NCBI GenBank assembly: GCA_964373915.1
Contig: CAYJWP010000001.1
Span: 51,860-115,859 of the forward strand
Length of the DNA stretch: 64,000 nucleotides
Source of the DNA: an uncultured Candidatus Saccharibacteria bacterium
GTDB taxonomy: Bacteria > Patescibacteriota > Minisyncoccia > UBA6257 > UBA11618
Reading direction: 5' to 3'
Shown: positions 4,947 through 61,939 of the stretch, one piece after another
Numbering within the stretch: the first letter of the stretch is position 1
Layout of the letters: the number at the start of each line of letters is the position of its first letter
The notes under the pieces: generated by a model
Told to the model about the DNA's origin: nothing
Seen by the model: the letters and a program-made list of their open reading frames with translations, nothing else
The model's database searches: none
Position numbers and translations under genes: made by a program

Positions 4947-5549
4947 ATGGACAACAAAAAAGAAAAGACTCTGGTCATTATTAAGCCAGACGGTGTTCAG
5001 CGCAGCCTTATAGGAGATATCATGAGTCGTTTTGAAAGAACCGGCTTGAAATTAGTGGGTTTAAAAATGCTAGTGCCGTCGCCGGATTTTATTGAAAGTC
5101 ATTATACTCTTGATCTTGGATGGCGCCGTAAAACTGGCGAAAAAACCATTGAGTCTTATAAAAGTAAAGGCAAGCAGCTGCCAACGGAAGATCCATTGAA
5201 AATTGCCGAGATAGTTTTAAATAATTTGAAAAAATTTATGTCTTCTGGACCGGTAGTGGTAATGGTCTGGCAGGGGATGAATGCCGTGGGTGTGGTTAGA
5301 AAAATTACAGGCGCCACCGAGCCGCTGACATCGGATGTCGGCACCATCCGCGGCGATTTGACCATAGACTCTTATGAGGTTTCCGATTTGGACGGCCGCT
5401 CCGTGCGCAACCTTATCCACGCCTCGGGCAATATTGAAGACGCGAAAAAAGAGATTCAGCTTTGGTTTAGCGAAAAGGAGTTGATTAGTTATCGACTTGT
5501 TCAGGAGGAGATTCTTTACAACGTTAATTTGGACGGAATTTTGGAATAA
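4947..5549 (+). CDS. ndk: nucleoside diphosphate kinase (long form with an internal insertion)
   Basis: 'TLVIIKPDGVQRSLIGDIMSRFE' and active-site His in 'NLIHASG'. A roughly 35-aa insertion relative to canonical 140-aa NDKs. Confidence 0.88.
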   Translation: MDNKKEKTLVIIKPDGVQRSLIGDIMSRFERTGLKLVGLKMLVPSPDFIESHYTLDLGWRRKTGEKTIESYKSKGKQLPTEDPLKIAEIVLNNLKKFMSSGPVVVMVWQGMNAVGVVRKITGATEPLTSDVGTIRGDLTIDSYEVSDLDGRSVRNLIHASGNIEDAKKEIQLWFSEKELISYRLVQEEILYNVNLDGILE

Positions 5550-7734: not shown

Positions 7735-7763
7735 TTCAAAAACACCACTCTGTCTGGTATTAT
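7735..7763 (+). promoter_or_regulatory. sigma70-like promoter (TTCAAA-17-TATTAT) for the 7800 gene
   Basis: Hexamers seen directly. Face-to-face with the minus-strand promoter, with overlapping -10 elements. Confidence 0.5.
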
Positions 7764-7787
7764 AGCATTATTATTATGATAAGTCAA
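7760..7787 (-). promoter_or_regulatory. sigma70 consensus promoter (TTGACT-17-TATAAT) for the 63-aa ORF
   Basis: Read on the minus strand as 'TTGACTtatcataataataatgcTATAAT'. Confidence 0.6.
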
Positions 7788-25977: not shown

Positions 25978-26048
25978 CTGCGGGACTAGGGCTCGAACCT
26001 AGATTACTTGATTCAGAGTCAAGCGTCCTACCATTAGACGATCCCGCA
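25978..26048 (-). tRNA. tRNA-Gln (anticodon CTG)
   Basis: Minus strand. Acceptor TGCGGGA/TCCCGCA, D-arm GTCT-AATGGTA-GGAC, anticodon stem CTTGA/TCAAG with loop CTCTGAA, T-arm CTAGG-TTCGAGC-CCTAG. Confidence 0.85.
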
Positions 26049-26078
26049 ATTAGATGCTACATTATAGCATAACATCTT

Positions 26079-26642
26079 ATGAAAACCAAGATTATTTTAA
26101 TATTAATAATCGTCGTCTTATTGGCCGGCGGTCTATTCTGGGCCTTTAATAATATACAAAAAAATAAAGAAGAAATTTCCGCCGAGGACCAAGAATTAAG
26201 CGAGGAAGAATTAGTTAATCTTGAAAAATTACTAGGATCGTTGGACGCCGGCCGTGAGCCAGGCACCTCACCTTTTCCCGGTGTTGAATGTTTGGAGGAC
26301 CACTTATTTGCGGAAAGACACATCCACACTTGGCTGGCTATTTTAGTGGATGGTGTTCGCGAGACTATTCCTGCCGATATTGGCATTACCGACAATTGTA
26401 TGGCCGAACTTCATACCCATGCCGACTCGGGACGGATTCATATAGAATCGGTTAAACCCGACATTGAATTCAATCTGGGAGACTTTTTCAGAGTTTGGGG
26501 CGAGCCTTTGGAGAGAAAGGGATACAACCTGCAAATGTCTGTTAAACCGCCCTCTAGTGAAGAGTTTCAATCAAGCTCAGAGTTAGCGGACTTTAAACTC
26601 AAAAACGAGTACCAAATAATCTTAAACTATGCTAAAAAATAG
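26079..26642 (+). CDS. hypothetical membrane-anchored His-rich protein (paralog of 20378-20800)
   Basis: 'RHIHTW...IPADIGIT...ELHTHADSGRIHIE...FFRVWGEPL' aligns with the 20378-20800 product. Confidence 0.5.
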   Translation: MKTKIILILIIVVLLAGGLFWAFNNIQKNKEEISAEDQELSEEELVNLEKLLGSLDAGREPGTSPFPGVECLEDHLFAERHIHTWLAILVDGVRETIPADIGITDNCMAELHTHADSGRIHIESVKPDIEFNLGDFFRVWGEPLERKGYNLQMSVKPPSSEEFQSSSELADFKLKNEYQIILNYAKK

Positions 26643-32668: not shown

Positions 32669-32674
32669 AAAAAA

Positions 32675-33056
32675 GGAAACTTAAATAGCAGCTGTTGTCC
32701 GCCATCGTTAAAGCTATAGCGGATGATAGAGGAAAGTCCGGACACTTGCCCAGCGCATATGCTGTGCGGTGGGAATGGTAGTAGTCGAAAGGCTACCGGT
32801 ATAAGCTGATGCCAGAGACAATAGGCATCGGTGAAGCCAGAGGTGCGAGCAGTGACGCTTTGGAGCGAAAGCTCTGAAGGGGCCCGATCCCAAGCTAGTT
32901 GGCCTAATCCAGTATAGGGATAAAAAACTGGGGTGAAACGGCTAAATCCTTACCTGAGTGCAAGGCCGTATCCTGAGTTTATCGAAGGAGGTGCCGCATA
33001 GATAAATTGCTATTATCCGCCAGCTGGCGGAACAGAATCCGGCTTATTGGTTTCCC
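32675..33056 (+). ncRNA. rnpB: RNase P RNA (bacterial type A-like)
   Basis: Universal elements 'GAGGAAAGTCCGGAC' and 'GGGGTGAAACGGC', plus 'ACAGAATCCGGCTTAT' just before the 3' strand of P1 (ggaaac / gtttcc). About 380 nt. Confidence 0.85.
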
Positions 33057-33102
33057 AAAAACTCCCCTCCGCCGGTTGGCGGAATAGGGGAGTTTTTGTT
33101 TT
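33057..33102 (+). terminator. rho-independent terminator after rnpB
   Basis: 'ACTCCCCT...AGGGGAGTTTTTGTTTT'. Confidence 0.75.
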
Positions 33103-52098: not shown

Positions 52099-52263
52099 CG
52101 CCGCAACCTCCTTCTATTATCAAATGGCTAACAAGACTCCGGTTTCATTGTAGCAAGTTTAAATAGTTCTGGCAATAGGGGCAAGTTTTGGCTTTACTAT
52201 CTCTTACTTATTGGTTATATTGCAAACAGTAGGAATAATTCAGCCCTTTAACAAGGAGTTACT

Positions 52264-59332: not shown

Positions 59333-59762
59333 AAACTTTACCTCCGGCCGCTTCTATCTTTTTTTGCGCCTCCTTTGAAATACGCAACTGCTGGCCGCCT
59401 GACAACTTTAATTCCACTGTAAAAGCTTTTTTTAACTCACCGCTGCCTAATATTTTAACGCTTCTGTCTTTAACAAAACCGGCCTCTCTCAAAGTTTTAA
59501 TATTGATAGTATTTCCTTTGATTTTCGATAAATAATTAACATTAACGGCTAAAGGCTTCACTTGAAAAGGCTTATTTTTATAACCTCTTAATTTTGGCAG
59601 ACGAGAAATCAACTCATAAATAGCCGGTTTAATCCTCCTGCCAGCATGAGCCTTCTGTCCCTTTTGGCCACGGCCTGAATAAGTGCCCCGCTTGCCTCCT
59701 CGGCCGACACGAGCGCCGCTTCTCTTTCTTTTATTTAATATTTTTATCTGATGTAATTGCAT
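59316..59762 (-). CDS. rplO: 50S ribosomal protein L15
   Basis: 'KRKRSGARVGRGGKRGTYSGRGQKGQKA'. Confidence 0.9.
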   Translation of the reverse strand: MQLHQIKILNKRKRSGARVGRGGKRGTYSGRGQKGQKAHAGRRIKPAIYELISRLPKLRGYKNKPFQVKPLAVNVNYLSKIKGNTINIKTLREAGFVKDRSVKILGSGELKKAFTVELKLSGGQQLRISKEAQKKIEAAGGKVFENVE

Positions 59763-59766
59763 ATAG

Positions 59767-60276
59767 TTACTCTTCGTCTTCGTTTCGGCTAGCCGGCTGT
59801 TGTTTAACTTCCTTTACCATCACTCCCTCCGATTTAATGTTTTTCAGCGCCTCAATAACCGCCATAGCATTAGTAAGCTTGTTAGAAGTAGTTCCTAAAT
59901 TTTTAGCGGTGCAATCTTTGACGCCCGCCAAAAACAAAACGGCTCTTGCCGAACCGCCGGCGCGCAGGCCGTGGCCGGGAATAGCCGGTTTTAATTTAAT
60001 TTTAGCGGCGCTGAACTTAGCGTCTACCTCATGGGCAATAGTGCCATTTTTTAGATTAACCCTAATTATATTTTTTTTGGCGGCAGAACGCGCTTTATCA
60101 ATAGCTTGAGCAACATCCAAACCTTTGGCAATGCCAACGCCCACTTGACCTTTCTCATCGCCCACCACCACCGTGGCGCGAAAACGAAAACGCTTGCCCC
60201 CGGCAACCACTCTAGTCACCCGACGAATTTCCAAAACACGCTCCTCAAATCCGTCTCCTTTTTTTACTATTCTCAT
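59767..60276 (-). CDS. rpsE: 30S ribosomal protein S5
   Basis: 'VTRVVAGGKRFRFRATVVVGD', 'GAGIIAG'-type motif 'GHGLRAGG'. Confidence 0.9.
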   Translation of the reverse strand: MRIVKKGDGFEERVLEIRRVTRVVAGGKRFRFRATVVVGDEKGQVGVGIAKGLDVAQAIDKARSAAKKNIIRVNLKNGTIAHEVDAKFSAAKIKLKPAIPGHGLRAGGSARAVLFLAGVKDCTAKNLGTTSNKLTNAMAVIEALKNIKSEGVMVKEVKQQPASRNEDEE

Positions 60277-60291
60277 AGATATGAAAAATGA

Positions 60292-60660
60292 TTAAAATTT
60301 TAAACCGCTCTGGCGAAAACCATCGGCTACCGCCTCCACCCGGCCGTGATATTTGTAGGCGCCCTTGTCAAAAATCAGAGCACTAACTCCAATTTTTTTT
60401 ACCTTTTCCGCCATCAACTCCCCCAATTTTCTGGCCCTGTCAGTTTTGCTTAAATGTTCCTTGGCATCGCCATTAATTAAATCCTTAGTTGAGCCGGCCA
60501 GCAAAGTCTTCTGATTTTTATCATCAATCAGTTGAACGTATATAAACTTATTGCTTCTGAAAATTGAAAGCCTGGGCCTTTCTTTAGTGCCAAAAATCTT
60601 GGCTCTCGCCCTAGCCCCTCTTAATCTCCTTTGAAAATTTAATCTTTTTTGATTTCTCAT
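60292..60660 (-). CDS. rplR: 50S ribosomal protein L18
   Basis: 'ERPRLSIFRSNKFIYVQLIDD'. Confidence 0.9.
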   Translation of the reverse strand: MRNQKRLNFQRRLRGARARAKIFGTKERPRLSIFRSNKFIYVQLIDDKNQKTLLAGSTKDLINGDAKEHLSKTDRARKLGELMAEKVKKIGVSALIFDKGAYKYHGRVEAVADGFRQSGLKF

Positions 60661-60687
60661 GTTGAATTTTAAGTATTTAATATTTTA

Positions 60688-61233
60688 TTAGCCGGTGACG
60701 CCCACCGCTTTCTTGCCGGCTTTTCTTCTTACGATTTCATCTTCGTATCTAATTCCTTTTCCTTTGTAAGGTTCTGGTTTTTTAATCCGGCGAATACGGG
60801 CGGCCGCCTCCCCTACCAAAGCTTTATCTATGCCGCTGATTTTTATTATGTTTTTCTCCACACTAATCGCCACTCCTTCGGGAGATTCAAACTTAACCGG
60901 ATGGCTGAAACCAACGTTTAAAACAAGATTCTTACCTTCCATGCTGACACGAAAACCAATGCCTTCCAATTTTAAAACTTTAGAAAATCCCTCTTTGACC
61001 CCCTCTATAGCGTTTTTAGTCAAAGCCACCGCGGTGCCCTGGTTGGCCGAAGCTTGGGTTGATTTGTCTTGAGCGCTTATAGACAAACTTCTATCTTTTG
61101 AATCAATTTTAATCAAGGGCGGCAACTTTAAAGAGAGCTCCCCTTTGGGCCCCCTCACTTTAACAACGCCCTCCTCAACCGCCACTTCAACTCCCTCGGG
61201 AATAATAATTGGTTTTTTACCTAATCTAGACAT
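60688..61233 (-). CDS. rplF: 50S ribosomal protein L6
   Basis: 'MSRLGKKPIIIPEGVEVAVEEGVVKVRGPKGEL'. Start taken at the internal ATG (61231-61233). The upstream 59 in-frame codons lack a stop but lie in the structured insert. Confidence 0.88.
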   Translation of the reverse strand: MSRLGKKPIIIPEGVEVAVEEGVVKVRGPKGELSLKLPPLIKIDSKDRSLSISAQDKSTQASANQGTAVALTKNAIEGVKEGFSKVLKLEGIGFRVSMEGKNLVLNVGFSHPVKFESPEGVAISVEKNIIKISGIDKALVGEAAARIRRIKKPEPYKGKGIRYEDEIVRRKAGKKAVGVTG

Positions 61234-61558
61234 AAAAACAACAGAGAAAAGGCTATCACATTTAAATAAATTAGGCAATAAAAATCCCTCCAACTTTATC
61301 CGAGTGAATATATGTTTGGCTGATCCGCCCGCTGGCTCCGCCAGCTGGCGGAGAAAACAACGAAGCGAAGCGAAGATTTTCTTTAGTAAATTAAACTGTT
61401 TGAGTTCCAATCCGCCGAAGGCGGAGTGGGCGAGTTTTTAAATTTACTTAGAAAAGCGAGCGTAGCGAGTTGGCTTTCTATCAGACAAACATCATGAAGG
61501 AGGGTAAGGTTGGAGGGATCTGAAGAATGAGGAAATAGTTTTGATTAAATTTTTATTC
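61234..61558 (-). other. about 325-bp non-coding, structured insert between rpsH and rplF in the spc operon
   Basis: Contains (CGAAG)x3 and 'GCGAGCGTAGCGAG' repeats. Contains hairpins 'CCGCCAGCTGGCGG' and 'CCGCC-TTCG-GCGG' (tetraloop). Confidence 0.6.
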
Positions 61559-61939
61559 TCACCAAATCTCAAAAAGAAGCTCTCCGCCAAGTTTTTGTTT
61601 TCTAGCTTCTTTGGTAGTCATTACTCCTTTGGGAGTGGAAATGACTCCGATGCCATAGCCGCTCTTAACCGTCTTCAGAGAATTATACCCGGCATAAATC
61701 CTCCTGGAAGACTTACTAATCAGCTTAATGCCGTTGATGGCGCCCTTGCCATCGCTATATTTCAGCTTTATCTCTATTATTCTCTTGGGCATCCTGCCTT
61801 TTTTGACCGCCTCCTCCACAAAACCATTTCTTTCTAAAATTTCCGCCACTCCCATATCAAAATGAGAGTAACCGGTTTTCAGCCCCTCTTTCTTAACTTT
61901 TTGCGCATTATTTATTTTAGTCAGCAGATCTATATACAT
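61559..61939 (-). CDS. rpsH: 30S ribosomal protein S8
   Basis: 'MYIDLLTKINNAQKVKKEGLKT...GYGIGVISTPKGVMT'. Confidence 0.9.
   Translation of the reverse strand: MYIDLLTKINNAQKVKKEGLKTGYSHFDMGVAEILERNGFVEEAVKKGRMPKRIIEIKLKYSDGKGAINGIKLISKSSRRIYAGYNSLKTVKSGYGIGVISTPKGVMTTKEARKQKLGGELLFEIW

Follow-up and report, generated by a model that had tools for sequence, protein, structure and literature searches.

The stretch of DNA analysed here (the window; 64,000 nt, deposited as from an uncultured Candidatus Saccharibacteria bacterium) carries a cluster of ribosomal-protein genes in which rpsH, encoding S8, and rplF, encoding L6, are separated by 325 nt (61234–61558). All other junctions from rpsQ to map are at most 34 nt long or overlap. 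What does this gap consist of, and what could it do inside the spc cluster? It was found to hold a 236-nt imperfect palindrome (61284–61519), which is very probably a member of a dispersed palindromic repeat family, together with a T-run and a predicted rplF promoter. The explanation we favour, with some reserve, is a composite one: the gap would be the boundary of two transcription units and would contain one copy of a palindromic repeat element resembling a miniature inverted-repeat transposable element (MITE) or an ERIC element. The feature itself is real and its explanation mostly ordinary, namely a repeat-derived hairpin and a terminator–promoter boundary. The parts of the locus are listed below by position and strand; the operon is read on the minus strand.

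60688–61233, minus: rplF (L6), the first gene after the gap; 181 aa, beginning MSRLGKKP, with PF00347 homologues
61250–61258, minus: predicted extended −10 element TG-a-TAGCCT, with a 17-nt spacer to the −35 box; the rplF ATG lies 16 nt downstream
61273–61278, minus: predicted −35 box TTGCCT, aligned with TTGCCT, TTGTGT, TTGCCA, TTGCTT and TTGAAA in seven relatives
61279–61284, minus: T-run, TTTTTA on the operon strand, directly past the hairpin foot; a terminator-like tail
61284–61301, unstranded: left arm of the outer stem, ATCCCTCCAACTTTATCC; 18 nt, 89% complementary to 61502–61519, with which it pairs
61309–61495, plus: the repeat-family element proper, on the better-folding 'element strand', which is antisense to the operon; it matches the family profile with an nhmmer E-value of 4e-14, the window's own copy being among the profile's training sequences
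61337–61352, unstranded: side hairpin, the perfect 16-nt palindrome TCCGCCAGCTGGCGGA, branching off the main rod
61361–61375, plus: purine-rich module CGAAGCGAAGCGAAG of overlapping GCGAAGC units, facing 61456–61469 across the rod
61378–61395, plus: 5' arm of stem S3, TTTCTTTAGTAAATTAAA, pairing with 61437–61454
61396–61408, plus: 5' side of the conserved core, CTGTTTGAGTTCC, containing the invariant TGTTTGAGT; 53.6 bits with the core covariance model R1, of which the window copy is a training sequence
61412–61424, unstranded: apical hairpin CCGCC-GAA-GGCGG, which varies in sequence among family members
61431–61436, plus: 3' side of the conserved core, CGAGTT, kept in all correctly aligned members
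61437–61454, plus: 3' arm of stem S3, TTTAAATTTACTTAGAAA, pairing with 61378–61395
61456–61469, plus: purine-rich module GCGAGCGTAGCGAG, opposite 61361–61375; the identical string is the apical part of copies of the E1 family described below
61502–61519, unstranded: right arm of the outer stem, GGGTAAGGTTGGAGGGAT, an inverted repeat
61520–61558, minus: AT-rich spacer of 39 nt from the rpsH stop codon to the hairpin foot, read from the sequence and unpaired in the minimum free energy (MFE) fold
61559–61939, minus: rpsH (S8), the last gene before the gap; a 126-aa open reading frame (ORF) ending ...GGELLFEIW*, matched by tblastn to S8 in 75 Patescibacteria loci

The rpsH–rplF gap and its coding content

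An earlier note on this DNA, made from its letters alone, had described a 325-bp insert in an otherwise tight string of genes, and the ORF coordinates and the list of junctions bear this out (S17–L14, 34 nt; L14–L24, 8 nt; L24–L5, overlap; L5–S14, 5 nt; S14–S8, 3 nt; L6–L18, 27 nt; L18–S5, 15 nt; S5–L15, 4 nt; L15–SecY, overlap). The comparison of spacing that it had called for also showed 325 nt to be unusual: the median S8–L6 gap in 75 Patescibacteria genomes is 11 nt, and a gap of at least 90 nt was seen in 10 of them. The insert is real. Misassembly, which the note had named as a possible refutation, was not borne out by the Logan assembly of run ERR4904390 (L081), which is 100% identical to window positions 60461–61480 and breaks inside the palindrome; since an independent assembly agrees, the insert is not peculiar to one of them.

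It had also been noticed that the rplF frame stays open for 59 further codons, and there is indeed a 240-aa ORF starting from a TTG at 61410, as against the 181-aa protein. Together with the public L6 gene call P0001 (196 aa), which starts 15 codons upstream, this might suggest coding sequence in the gap, either a small gene or additional N-terminal residues of L6. However, the extra codons are not conserved, all relatives beginning with MSR/KLGKKP 13–16 nt past the −10 box, so that the 59-codon frame is, judged by this comparison, not coding, and the ORFs found in the gap do no more than overlap the palindrome. As an explanation of the gap, a coding sequence is very improbable, and so is an assembly artefact, positions 61234–61480 being reproduced exactly in the Logan assembly. 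The TTG start of P0001 lies 15 codons before the conserved Met, within the promoter region (61234–61278, minus), and was probably set 15 codons too early.

We considered whether the S8–L6 junction is a hot spot for inserts and rejected the idea, as gaps of at least 90 nt are similarly frequent at S14–S8, L6–L18 and S5–L15 (the figures of the junction-gap script for L24–L5 and L18–S5 are unreliable, as N-terminal lengths vary). Gaps of this size occur at several junctions of the spc cluster in roughly 7–15% of Patescibacteria genomes. Unrelated hairpin or repeat inserts of 95–170 nt were seen between rpsH and rplF in L027, L037, L042, L061, L031 and L055 (at about 2330–2500 of each locus), and the arms of some of them are built of short repeats of the GATTTTA or AATATAG type. 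Further along the cluster rpsE and rplO are 4 nt apart (59762–59767), with no rpmD (L30) between them; L30 is absent in bacteria of the candidate phyla radiation (CPR), with which this arrangement is consistent.

A terminator-like hairpin and a probable rplF promoter

The palindrome is made of nested inverted repeats (I2, I4 and I3) and could form a long hairpin or a cruciform. Its predicted folding energy is −85.5 kcal/mol on the operon strand and −101.5 kcal/mol on the plus strand, with z-scores of −4.1 and −6.4, respectively, and none of 100 shuffled sequences was as stable on either strand, in agreement with the earlier description of the insert as structured. The MFE fold of the operon strand retains the foot stem beside the T-run, and on this strand the outer-stem partner GGTTGGAGGGAT is the 3' half of the terminator-like stem. 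The foot is a GC-containing stem followed by UUUUUA on the transcribed strand, as in an intrinsic terminator; a terminator scanner with a loop limit of 3–8 nt did not list it. The 3' half of the foot stem, GGTTGGAGGGA-TTTTT, matches one half of the terminator of a close relative, L084 (GGTTGGGGA-TTTTT), the common string being GGTTGG(A)GGGA-TTTTT, and in L084 there is only a short hairpin at the foot-stem position.

One nucleotide beyond the T-run lies a predicted promoter of the sigma-70 type, TTGCCT-17-TGaTAGCCT (61250–61278, minus). The 45 nt that precede rplF contain, in the window and in seven relatives, TTG(CCT/TGT/CCA/CTT/AAA), a 17-nt spacer ending in TGn, and TA(ATA/AAA/CCA/ACA/GCC)T, and the rplF start codon follows 13–16 nt past the −10 box. 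At the same spacing, the −10 boxes of the relatives read TGnTAATAT, TAAAAT, TACCAT or TAACAT, and an alignment of five sequences gives TTGCCT-17-TGnTAATAT. We compared the rplF neighbourhoods of nine close relatives and the window, ten lineages in all. The position of the promoter, its spacing and the distance to the ATG are kept in eight of the ten, whether the palindromic element is present or not, and the two lineages without the promoter (L083 and L212) are those with a tight junction. Conservation of spacing and position, although rplF is only 64–67% identical at the nucleotide level, points to a functional promoter, and we regard this as quite probable.

The same type of promoter was found 12 nt upstream of a tRNA gene at 25978–26048 (site 26061–26089, minus). 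Other TTG-N17-TGnTAnnnT sites lie at 52147–52175 (minus) and 7759–7787 (minus), and one site is 48 nt upstream of a 115-aa ORF. The extended −10 pattern occurs five times in the window, where 2.4 occurrences would be expected by chance; as it also precedes a tRNA gene and at least one other ORF, the organism seems to use extended −10 promoters.

The relatives are distant. The best L6 match in GTDB, with one genome per species, is 56% identical, and all top loci are from metagenome-assembled genomes of Patescibacteria; in a collection of 5.8 billion proteins the next L6 relatives are 62–67% identical. With the nearest L6 at only 62–67%, the window comes from a lone CPR lineage. The junctions between S8 and L6 in the nine relatives are as follows.

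L083: tight junction, 19 nt
L212: tight junction, 6 nt
L084: 95-nt gap with a short hairpin, a T-run and a promoter
L210: clean terminator, CGCCTCACTG-tga-CAGTGAGGCG-TTTATTT, then an abutting promoter, TTGCCA-17-TGaTAATAT
L211: 170-nt gap with a hairpin and a promoter
L086: an opposite-strand gene with an Nfu_N domain (504–878, minus), a different hairpin, then a promoter
L214: about 770 nt with several hairpins, a 69-aa Cys-rich ORF with CxxC repeats (5228–5436, plus), a terminator and a promoter
L082: 351-nt gap with a homologue of the window hairpin, then a promoter
L085: an inverted homologue of the window hairpin, then a promoter; no S8 gene upstream

A hairpin with a T-run thus stands at the same place in L084, L210, L211, L086 and L214. 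Further signs of a boundary at this junction in the clade are the absence of S8 upstream of rplF in L085 and the genes placed between S8 and L6 in L086 (Nfu_N) and L214 (the small ORF).

Taken together, these features suggest how the locus may work. A transcript from rplP...rpsH would meet a very long hairpin with the foot GAUCCCUCCAACC/GGUUGGAGGGAU and then UUUUUA. Transcription would end there fully or partly, or else the hairpin would protect the 3' end of rplP...rpsH; for real termination at this predicted terminator-like hairpin the chances seem slightly better than even. The genes rplF-rplR-rpsE-rplO-secY-adk-map would have a promoter of their own, and their transcript would begin with a leader of about 10 nt that lacks a Shine-Dalgarno sequence. 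Most likely an older short terminator hairpin received, in or near its loop, a mobile or formerly mobile MITE/ERIC-like palindrome, and the inserted element would now supply most of the terminator hairpin.

A similar split may have arisen independently in another CPR lineage: in a Saccharibacteria locus (L071:1809–2501) we saw a 691-nt S8–L6 gap with an apparent membrane-protein ORF and a TTGCAT-17-TGcTAAAAT promoter before rplF. We also noticed a perfect palindrome with 25-bp arms (AGCCACATAAAAAGCCCCCACGAAG and its reverse complement) between genes in L213 (4231–4281), which is unrelated to the repeat family described next.

A dispersed palindromic repeat family

The inner ~190 nt of the palindrome have homologues in a family of dispersed, non-coding elements, in which we would place it. 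The elements of this family are 180–300 nt long, palindromic throughout, and have a common core, CTGTTTGAGTYC-(variable hairpin)-CGAGTT, flanked by an AU-rich stem and purine-rich modules of the GCGAAGC type. A search pattern was derived from the three CPR copies, those of the window, L082 and L085 (TGTTTGAGTYC-N15-45-CGAGTTYT-N2-3-ATTT, with no chance expectation in the window). When JGI metagenomes were scanned with it, at least 120 stretches were found. One family of ~285 nt, E1, accounted for 98 of 128 instances; this and the other counts for E1 are among the matches listed. The core of E1 is TGTTTGAGTCCCGAGCGTAGCGAGGTCGAGTTCTTTAATTT, its consensus ends are TATAGTGTTTGTCAAAATAACGTTCCG...CGGAACATATTTATGACAACCGGTATA, and it terminates in ...GGTATA. 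The ends of the window element, TATATGTTTGGCTGAT...ATCAGACAAACATCAT, resemble the inverted repeats of E1 (TATAGTGTTTGTC...), as do its arms, TATATGTTTGGC.../...GACAAACATCAT; the arms at 61312–61324 and 61480–61492 are 92% complementary.

At least 98 (about 100) copies of E1 lie in Desulfobacterales-type contigs from marine sediment, between unrelated genes and in both orientations, often at contig ends and up to two per contig. Relative to the neighbouring ORFs their orientation is unbiased (++ 10, −− 7). In L106, for example, the neighbours are a CHASE2 adenylate cyclase, HemN and 2-oxoacid:ferredoxin oxidoreductase (POR), and neither S8 nor L6 was found near E1 in 120 loci. The POR alpha subunit beside E1 is 84–86% identical to proteins named Desulfobacterales, Thermodesulfobacteriota or Deltaproteobacteria, and by this measure the host of E1 is Desulfobacterales-like. 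E1 is abundant in the marine-sediment metagenomes Ga0209976, Ga0114923, Ga0114925 and SDBT/SDBU (L087–L206, e.g. L104:1750–2040 and L106:7840–8146). Many contigs end inside E1, which may be a main cause of the fragmented assembly of this host.

Further subfamilies, E2 (L148, L153, L196), L094/L109, L166 and L170, have the same order of modules: outer arms, purine-rich module, AU-rich stem S3, core and variable apical hairpin. The purine-rich modules are GCGAAGCGGAGCG facing AGCGCAGCGAGCC in E1 and E2, and GCGAAGCGGAGCG facing AGCGNAGCGAG across subfamilies. The short direct repeats to which the earlier note had drawn attention, (CGAAG)x3 and GCGAGCGTAGCGAG, are both present, the former as CGAAGCGAAGCGAAG, and from their sequence and place they read as the window's versions of these modules. 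The TGTTTGAGT string is invariant in 15 aligned members of five subfamilies, and CGAGTT, in whose segment L094 and L109 were misaligned in alignment A4, is fully invariant in re-alignment A5. All correctly aligned members, from two phyla, retain an internal loop of 12+6 nt. The pairing of S3 is kept by compensatory changes across subfamilies (TGAAG/CTTCA, GCAG/CTGC, CGAG/CTC(C), TTAAA/TTTAA), and covariance model R1 gives 45.8 bits to L082, which was outside its training set.

The element is present at this locus in the window and in two of the nine close relatives. The gap of L082 folds into a rod of ~250 nt (z-scores −10.5 and −11.5) and shares GAACTCAAACAG with the window, and in L085 this arrangement is found, reverse-complemented, upstream of the rplF promoter. 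Among these three copies the alignable blocks are 79–86% identical, compared with the 64–67% of rplF; L082 and L085 are closest to each other both in L6 (71% of amino acids) and in the element. No second copy was found in the 64-kb window by blastn, nhmmer or model R1 with filters off, the only extra match being the 16-nt palindrome. Nor was there a further copy in 445 kb of other Patescibacteria ribosomal-protein loci, in a further 11 kb of the L082 contig (L213) or in 12 kb of the contig L214. This view of CPR genomes is ascertained through the rpsH–rplF locus, and the metagenome matches are dominated by E1. Two pattern matches in viral contigs (L207 and L208) fail the covariance model and are due to chance; the insert had no match in plasmid or phage collections, and E1 had none in plasmids. 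A literature search on MITEs in Patescibacteria, CPR or Desulfobacter, and on the core string, gave nothing relevant.

Two GC hairpins pointed out earlier were located as well. CCGCC-TTCG-GCGG is CCGCCTTCGGCGG, the apical hairpin at 61412–61424 read on the minus strand. The other, CCGCCAGCTGGCGG (61338–61351), has a second exact copy at 33017–33030, and the whole 16-nt palindrome recurs at 33016–33031, inside the RNase P RNA as had been stated; this recurrence is probably coincidental. The RNA is of bacterial class A (32673–33061, plus; full-model match, 43 bits, E 6.7e-12), and because its score is below the gathering score of 100, a default Rfam scan misses it. With gathering thresholds, Rfam returned only four tRNAs from the whole window. 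The Rfam check that the note had proposed for the insert was made permissively (E up to 10), also with one E1 copy, and yielded chance matches only.

Strand asymmetry and the conserved core

The strand that reads CTGTTTGAG folds 15–24 kcal/mol better than its complement in five of the seven members tested, and in L196 and L094 there was little or no difference between the strands. A comparison of arm against arm, in which the 5' arm was set against the reverse complement of the 3' arm with no folding model, gave 47 G-U against 14 A-C oppositions and 84 purine–purine against 42 pyrimidine–pyrimidine ones, with the same direction in all six elements examined. Departures from the Watson-Crick consensus pairs in 47 E1 copies were likewise more often G-U (133) than A-C (80), a count that is not independent as the copies are related. 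Symmetry would be expected of an element that acts only as a double strand; the family therefore seems to be under constraint in single-stranded form, as single-stranded DNA (ssDNA) during movement or as RNA. In the window the plus strand folds better; it is antisense to the operon, whose mRNA thus has the weaker, still very stable hairpin.

Both the conservation of the core above that of the ends and the strand asymmetry suggest that the family either passes through a single-stranded intermediate or functions as RNA. One could go further and suppose that the asymmetric core, CUGUUUGAGUYC/CGAGUU in a rod lined with purine mismatches, is an undescribed functional single-stranded motif (RNA or ssDNA) common to Desulfobacterales-like bacteria and Patescibacteria, that selection keeps this motif and not the terminal repeats, and that one CPR copy was kept vertically at rpsH|rplF to work in the control of the ribosomal-protein operon. 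We offer this as a speculation that is rather unlikely to hold as a whole. A hammerhead-like reading of CUGUUUGAG...CGAGUU was rejected, as the catalytic positions do not fit and Rfam gave no hammerhead match.

Comparison with known element classes

ERIC/IRU elements of Enterobacteriaceae and Vibrio are imperfect palindromes of about 127 bp that lie between genes, in either orientation, within or between operons; they are unusually conserved for non-coding DNA, and their transcripts fold into long hairpins able to affect the fate of the mRNA. Compared by description, the present family is also non-coding, palindromic over its whole length, intergenic and found in either orientation. It differs in having no sequence similarity to ERIC, in its length of 180–300 nt, in the CTGTTTGAGTYC/CGAGTT core and GCGAAGC-type purine modules, and in spanning Patescibacteria and Desulfobacterales-like hosts. 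We know of no report of strand asymmetry for ERIC. The Correia elements of Neisseria (CREE/NEMIS) are 100–155 bp long with 26-bp inverted repeats, a non-palindromic centre and ends TATAG...CTATA next to TA; there are hundreds of copies, often intergenic, whose transcript hairpins are cut by RNase III and which can create promoters or terminators. Again by description, the present family resembles these small non-autonomous repeats in behaviour, being non-coding, intergenic and able to form hairpins in transcripts; in sequence and build, no similarity was seen beyond the TATAG ends.

There is a likeness to MITEs too, which are non-autonomous derivatives of insertion sequences. The elements are small and without a conserved ORF (about 190 nt in the window, or 236 nt with the outer stem, and about 285 nt for E1), they have terminal inverted repeats (TATAGTGTTTGTCAAAATAACGTTCCG/CGGAACATATTTATGACAACCGGTATA in E1, TATATGTTTGGCTGAT/ATCAGACAAACATCAT in the window) and many copies in Desulfobacterales-like hosts (98 E1 instances at unrelated loci, up to two per contig, compared with one copy in 64 kb of the window), contigs break at them, and their presence varies among related genomes. 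E1 copies are bounded by TATA...TATA, where, without empty sites, a TA duplication is inseparable from the repeat ends. No transposase-bearing version with E1 ends was found in the 120 loci fetched, which contained orphan ends at contig ends only. In ordinary MITEs, however, the ends are best conserved, for transposase binding, whereas here the central core is invariant and the outer arms differ between subfamilies.

Tolerance of G-T and purine–purine mismatches on one strand would fit an ssDNA intermediate such as that of IS200/IS605-type elements. Palindrome-associated elements (PATEs), which derive from these, have separate subterminal hairpins, no long inverted repeats and no whole-length palindrome, whereas this family is palindromic throughout, and no TnpA or TnpB gene was seen nearby. 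Integron attC sites were rejected, given the unbiased orientation, the housekeeping neighbours and ends of the form TATAG..., whereas attC sites lie in uniform orientation after cassette ORFs and have RYYYAAC/GTTRRRY ends. Finally, the foot, the T-run and TTGCCT-17-TGnTANNNT resemble an ordinary terminator followed by an extended −10 promoter, of which L084 and L210 have a plain version; here the hairpin measures about 236 nt, compared with 20–40 nt, and the boundary would fall within the spc cluster, at rpsH|rplF, a junction with no known boundary in E. coli or B. subtilis.

Weighing the explanations

Several findings weigh against the composite explanation of a transcription boundary with an inserted repeat. 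Canonical intrinsic terminators are much shorter than this hairpin, and it is the less stable element strand that lies in the operon mRNA, so that the element is not tuned to a terminator job. The −10 hexamer of the window, TAGCCT, is the weakest of the set, with three of six consensus matches, and a simple consensus scanner gave no call. No target-site duplication or parent transposase was identified. With one copy in 64 kb and none in the other CPR DNA scanned, the multi-copy status that is the hallmark of MITEs has been shown only in Desulfobacterales-like hosts. That three of ten CPR lineages have the element at the same place is difficult to reconcile with random insertion, which would require tens of copies per genome or very few permissive sites. 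That last point is where a second explanation has its strength, namely that a structured element was domesticated and inherited vertically: an ancestral rpsH|rplF copy would have been kept by selection in the CPR clade and lost in some lineages, serving as a terminator or insulator, as protection of the mRNA 3' end, as an RNase III processing site or as a supercoiling-sensitive cruciform beside the promoter, and the Desulfobacterales repeats would be its mobile cousin. The carriers have the element at this single locus, with no further copy in about 75 kb of their genomes; its blocks are more similar than rplF and their similarity tracks the relatedness of the hosts; and the hairpins are intact though synonymous sites must be saturated. 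Yet the carriers were sampled through this locus only, and the matches listed from metagenomes (at least 120) are mostly E1. The element meets the conserved GGTTGGGG-TTTTT box in a different way in each of the three genomes (nested, abutting, or 55 nt away), one copy is inverted entirely, four relatives manage with a plain short terminator, and an invariant asymmetric core is unnecessary for a simple hairpin function. Domestication is therefore, in our judgement, a serious alternative but not a likely one.

The strand asymmetry would also be expected if the element were a non-coding RNA gene in its own right, read from the plus strand and so antisense to the operon, with the G-rich strand as the functional transcript and the multi-copy relatives as paralogous RNA genes. 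The greater stability of the element strand in most members tested, the excess of G-U and purine–purine oppositions and the internal loop kept across two phyla fit such a gene, but an ssDNA intermediate would give the same asymmetry. At the window locus no site resembling a promoter or terminator was found for transcription of the plus strand, no Rfam family matches, and E1 has no orientation preference and transposon-like inverted-repeat ends, which leaves this idea improbable. More remote still is an autoregulatory leader in which a mimic of the rRNA-binding site of S8 or L6 controls translation of rplF. The element is strongly structured and directly upstream of rplF, and the counterpart operon of E. 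coli is regulated by S8; but no ribosomal-protein leader was among the Rfam matches with E up to 10, the structure lies upstream of the promoter and hence outside the rplF mRNA, and L084 and L210 keep the promoter without the element. Moreover, L085 has the element inverted, and in another phylum it is found next to genes for POR, HemN and adenylate cyclase; in all, the Desulfobacterales-type contigs have it at some 100 loci that are unrelated. Of the earlier suggestion of a regulatory leader there thus remain the conserved rplF promoter and the terminator-like hairpin with its T-run, and not autoregulation by a ribosomal protein. Of the suggested scar of an excised element there remains the mobile element, as a member of a dispersed palindromic family, and not the excision, as the copy is intact; this idea comes closest among the three that the note had offered, a small non-coding RNA being the other.

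Significance

The longest non-coding stretch in this ribosomal-protein cluster can be explained in this way. The repeat family is undescribed and extends across phyla, with an invariant core and a single-strand signature, which is of modest novelty; our literature search turned up no report on repeat elements in the genomes of CPR bacteria. The element links a CPR lineage to a family of repeats whose expansion in Desulfobacterales-like bacteria of sediments is about a hundred-fold. In one clade of Patescibacteria, the spc cluster is seemingly split into two transcription units at rpsH|rplF, and this clade-specific split is modestly novel as well.

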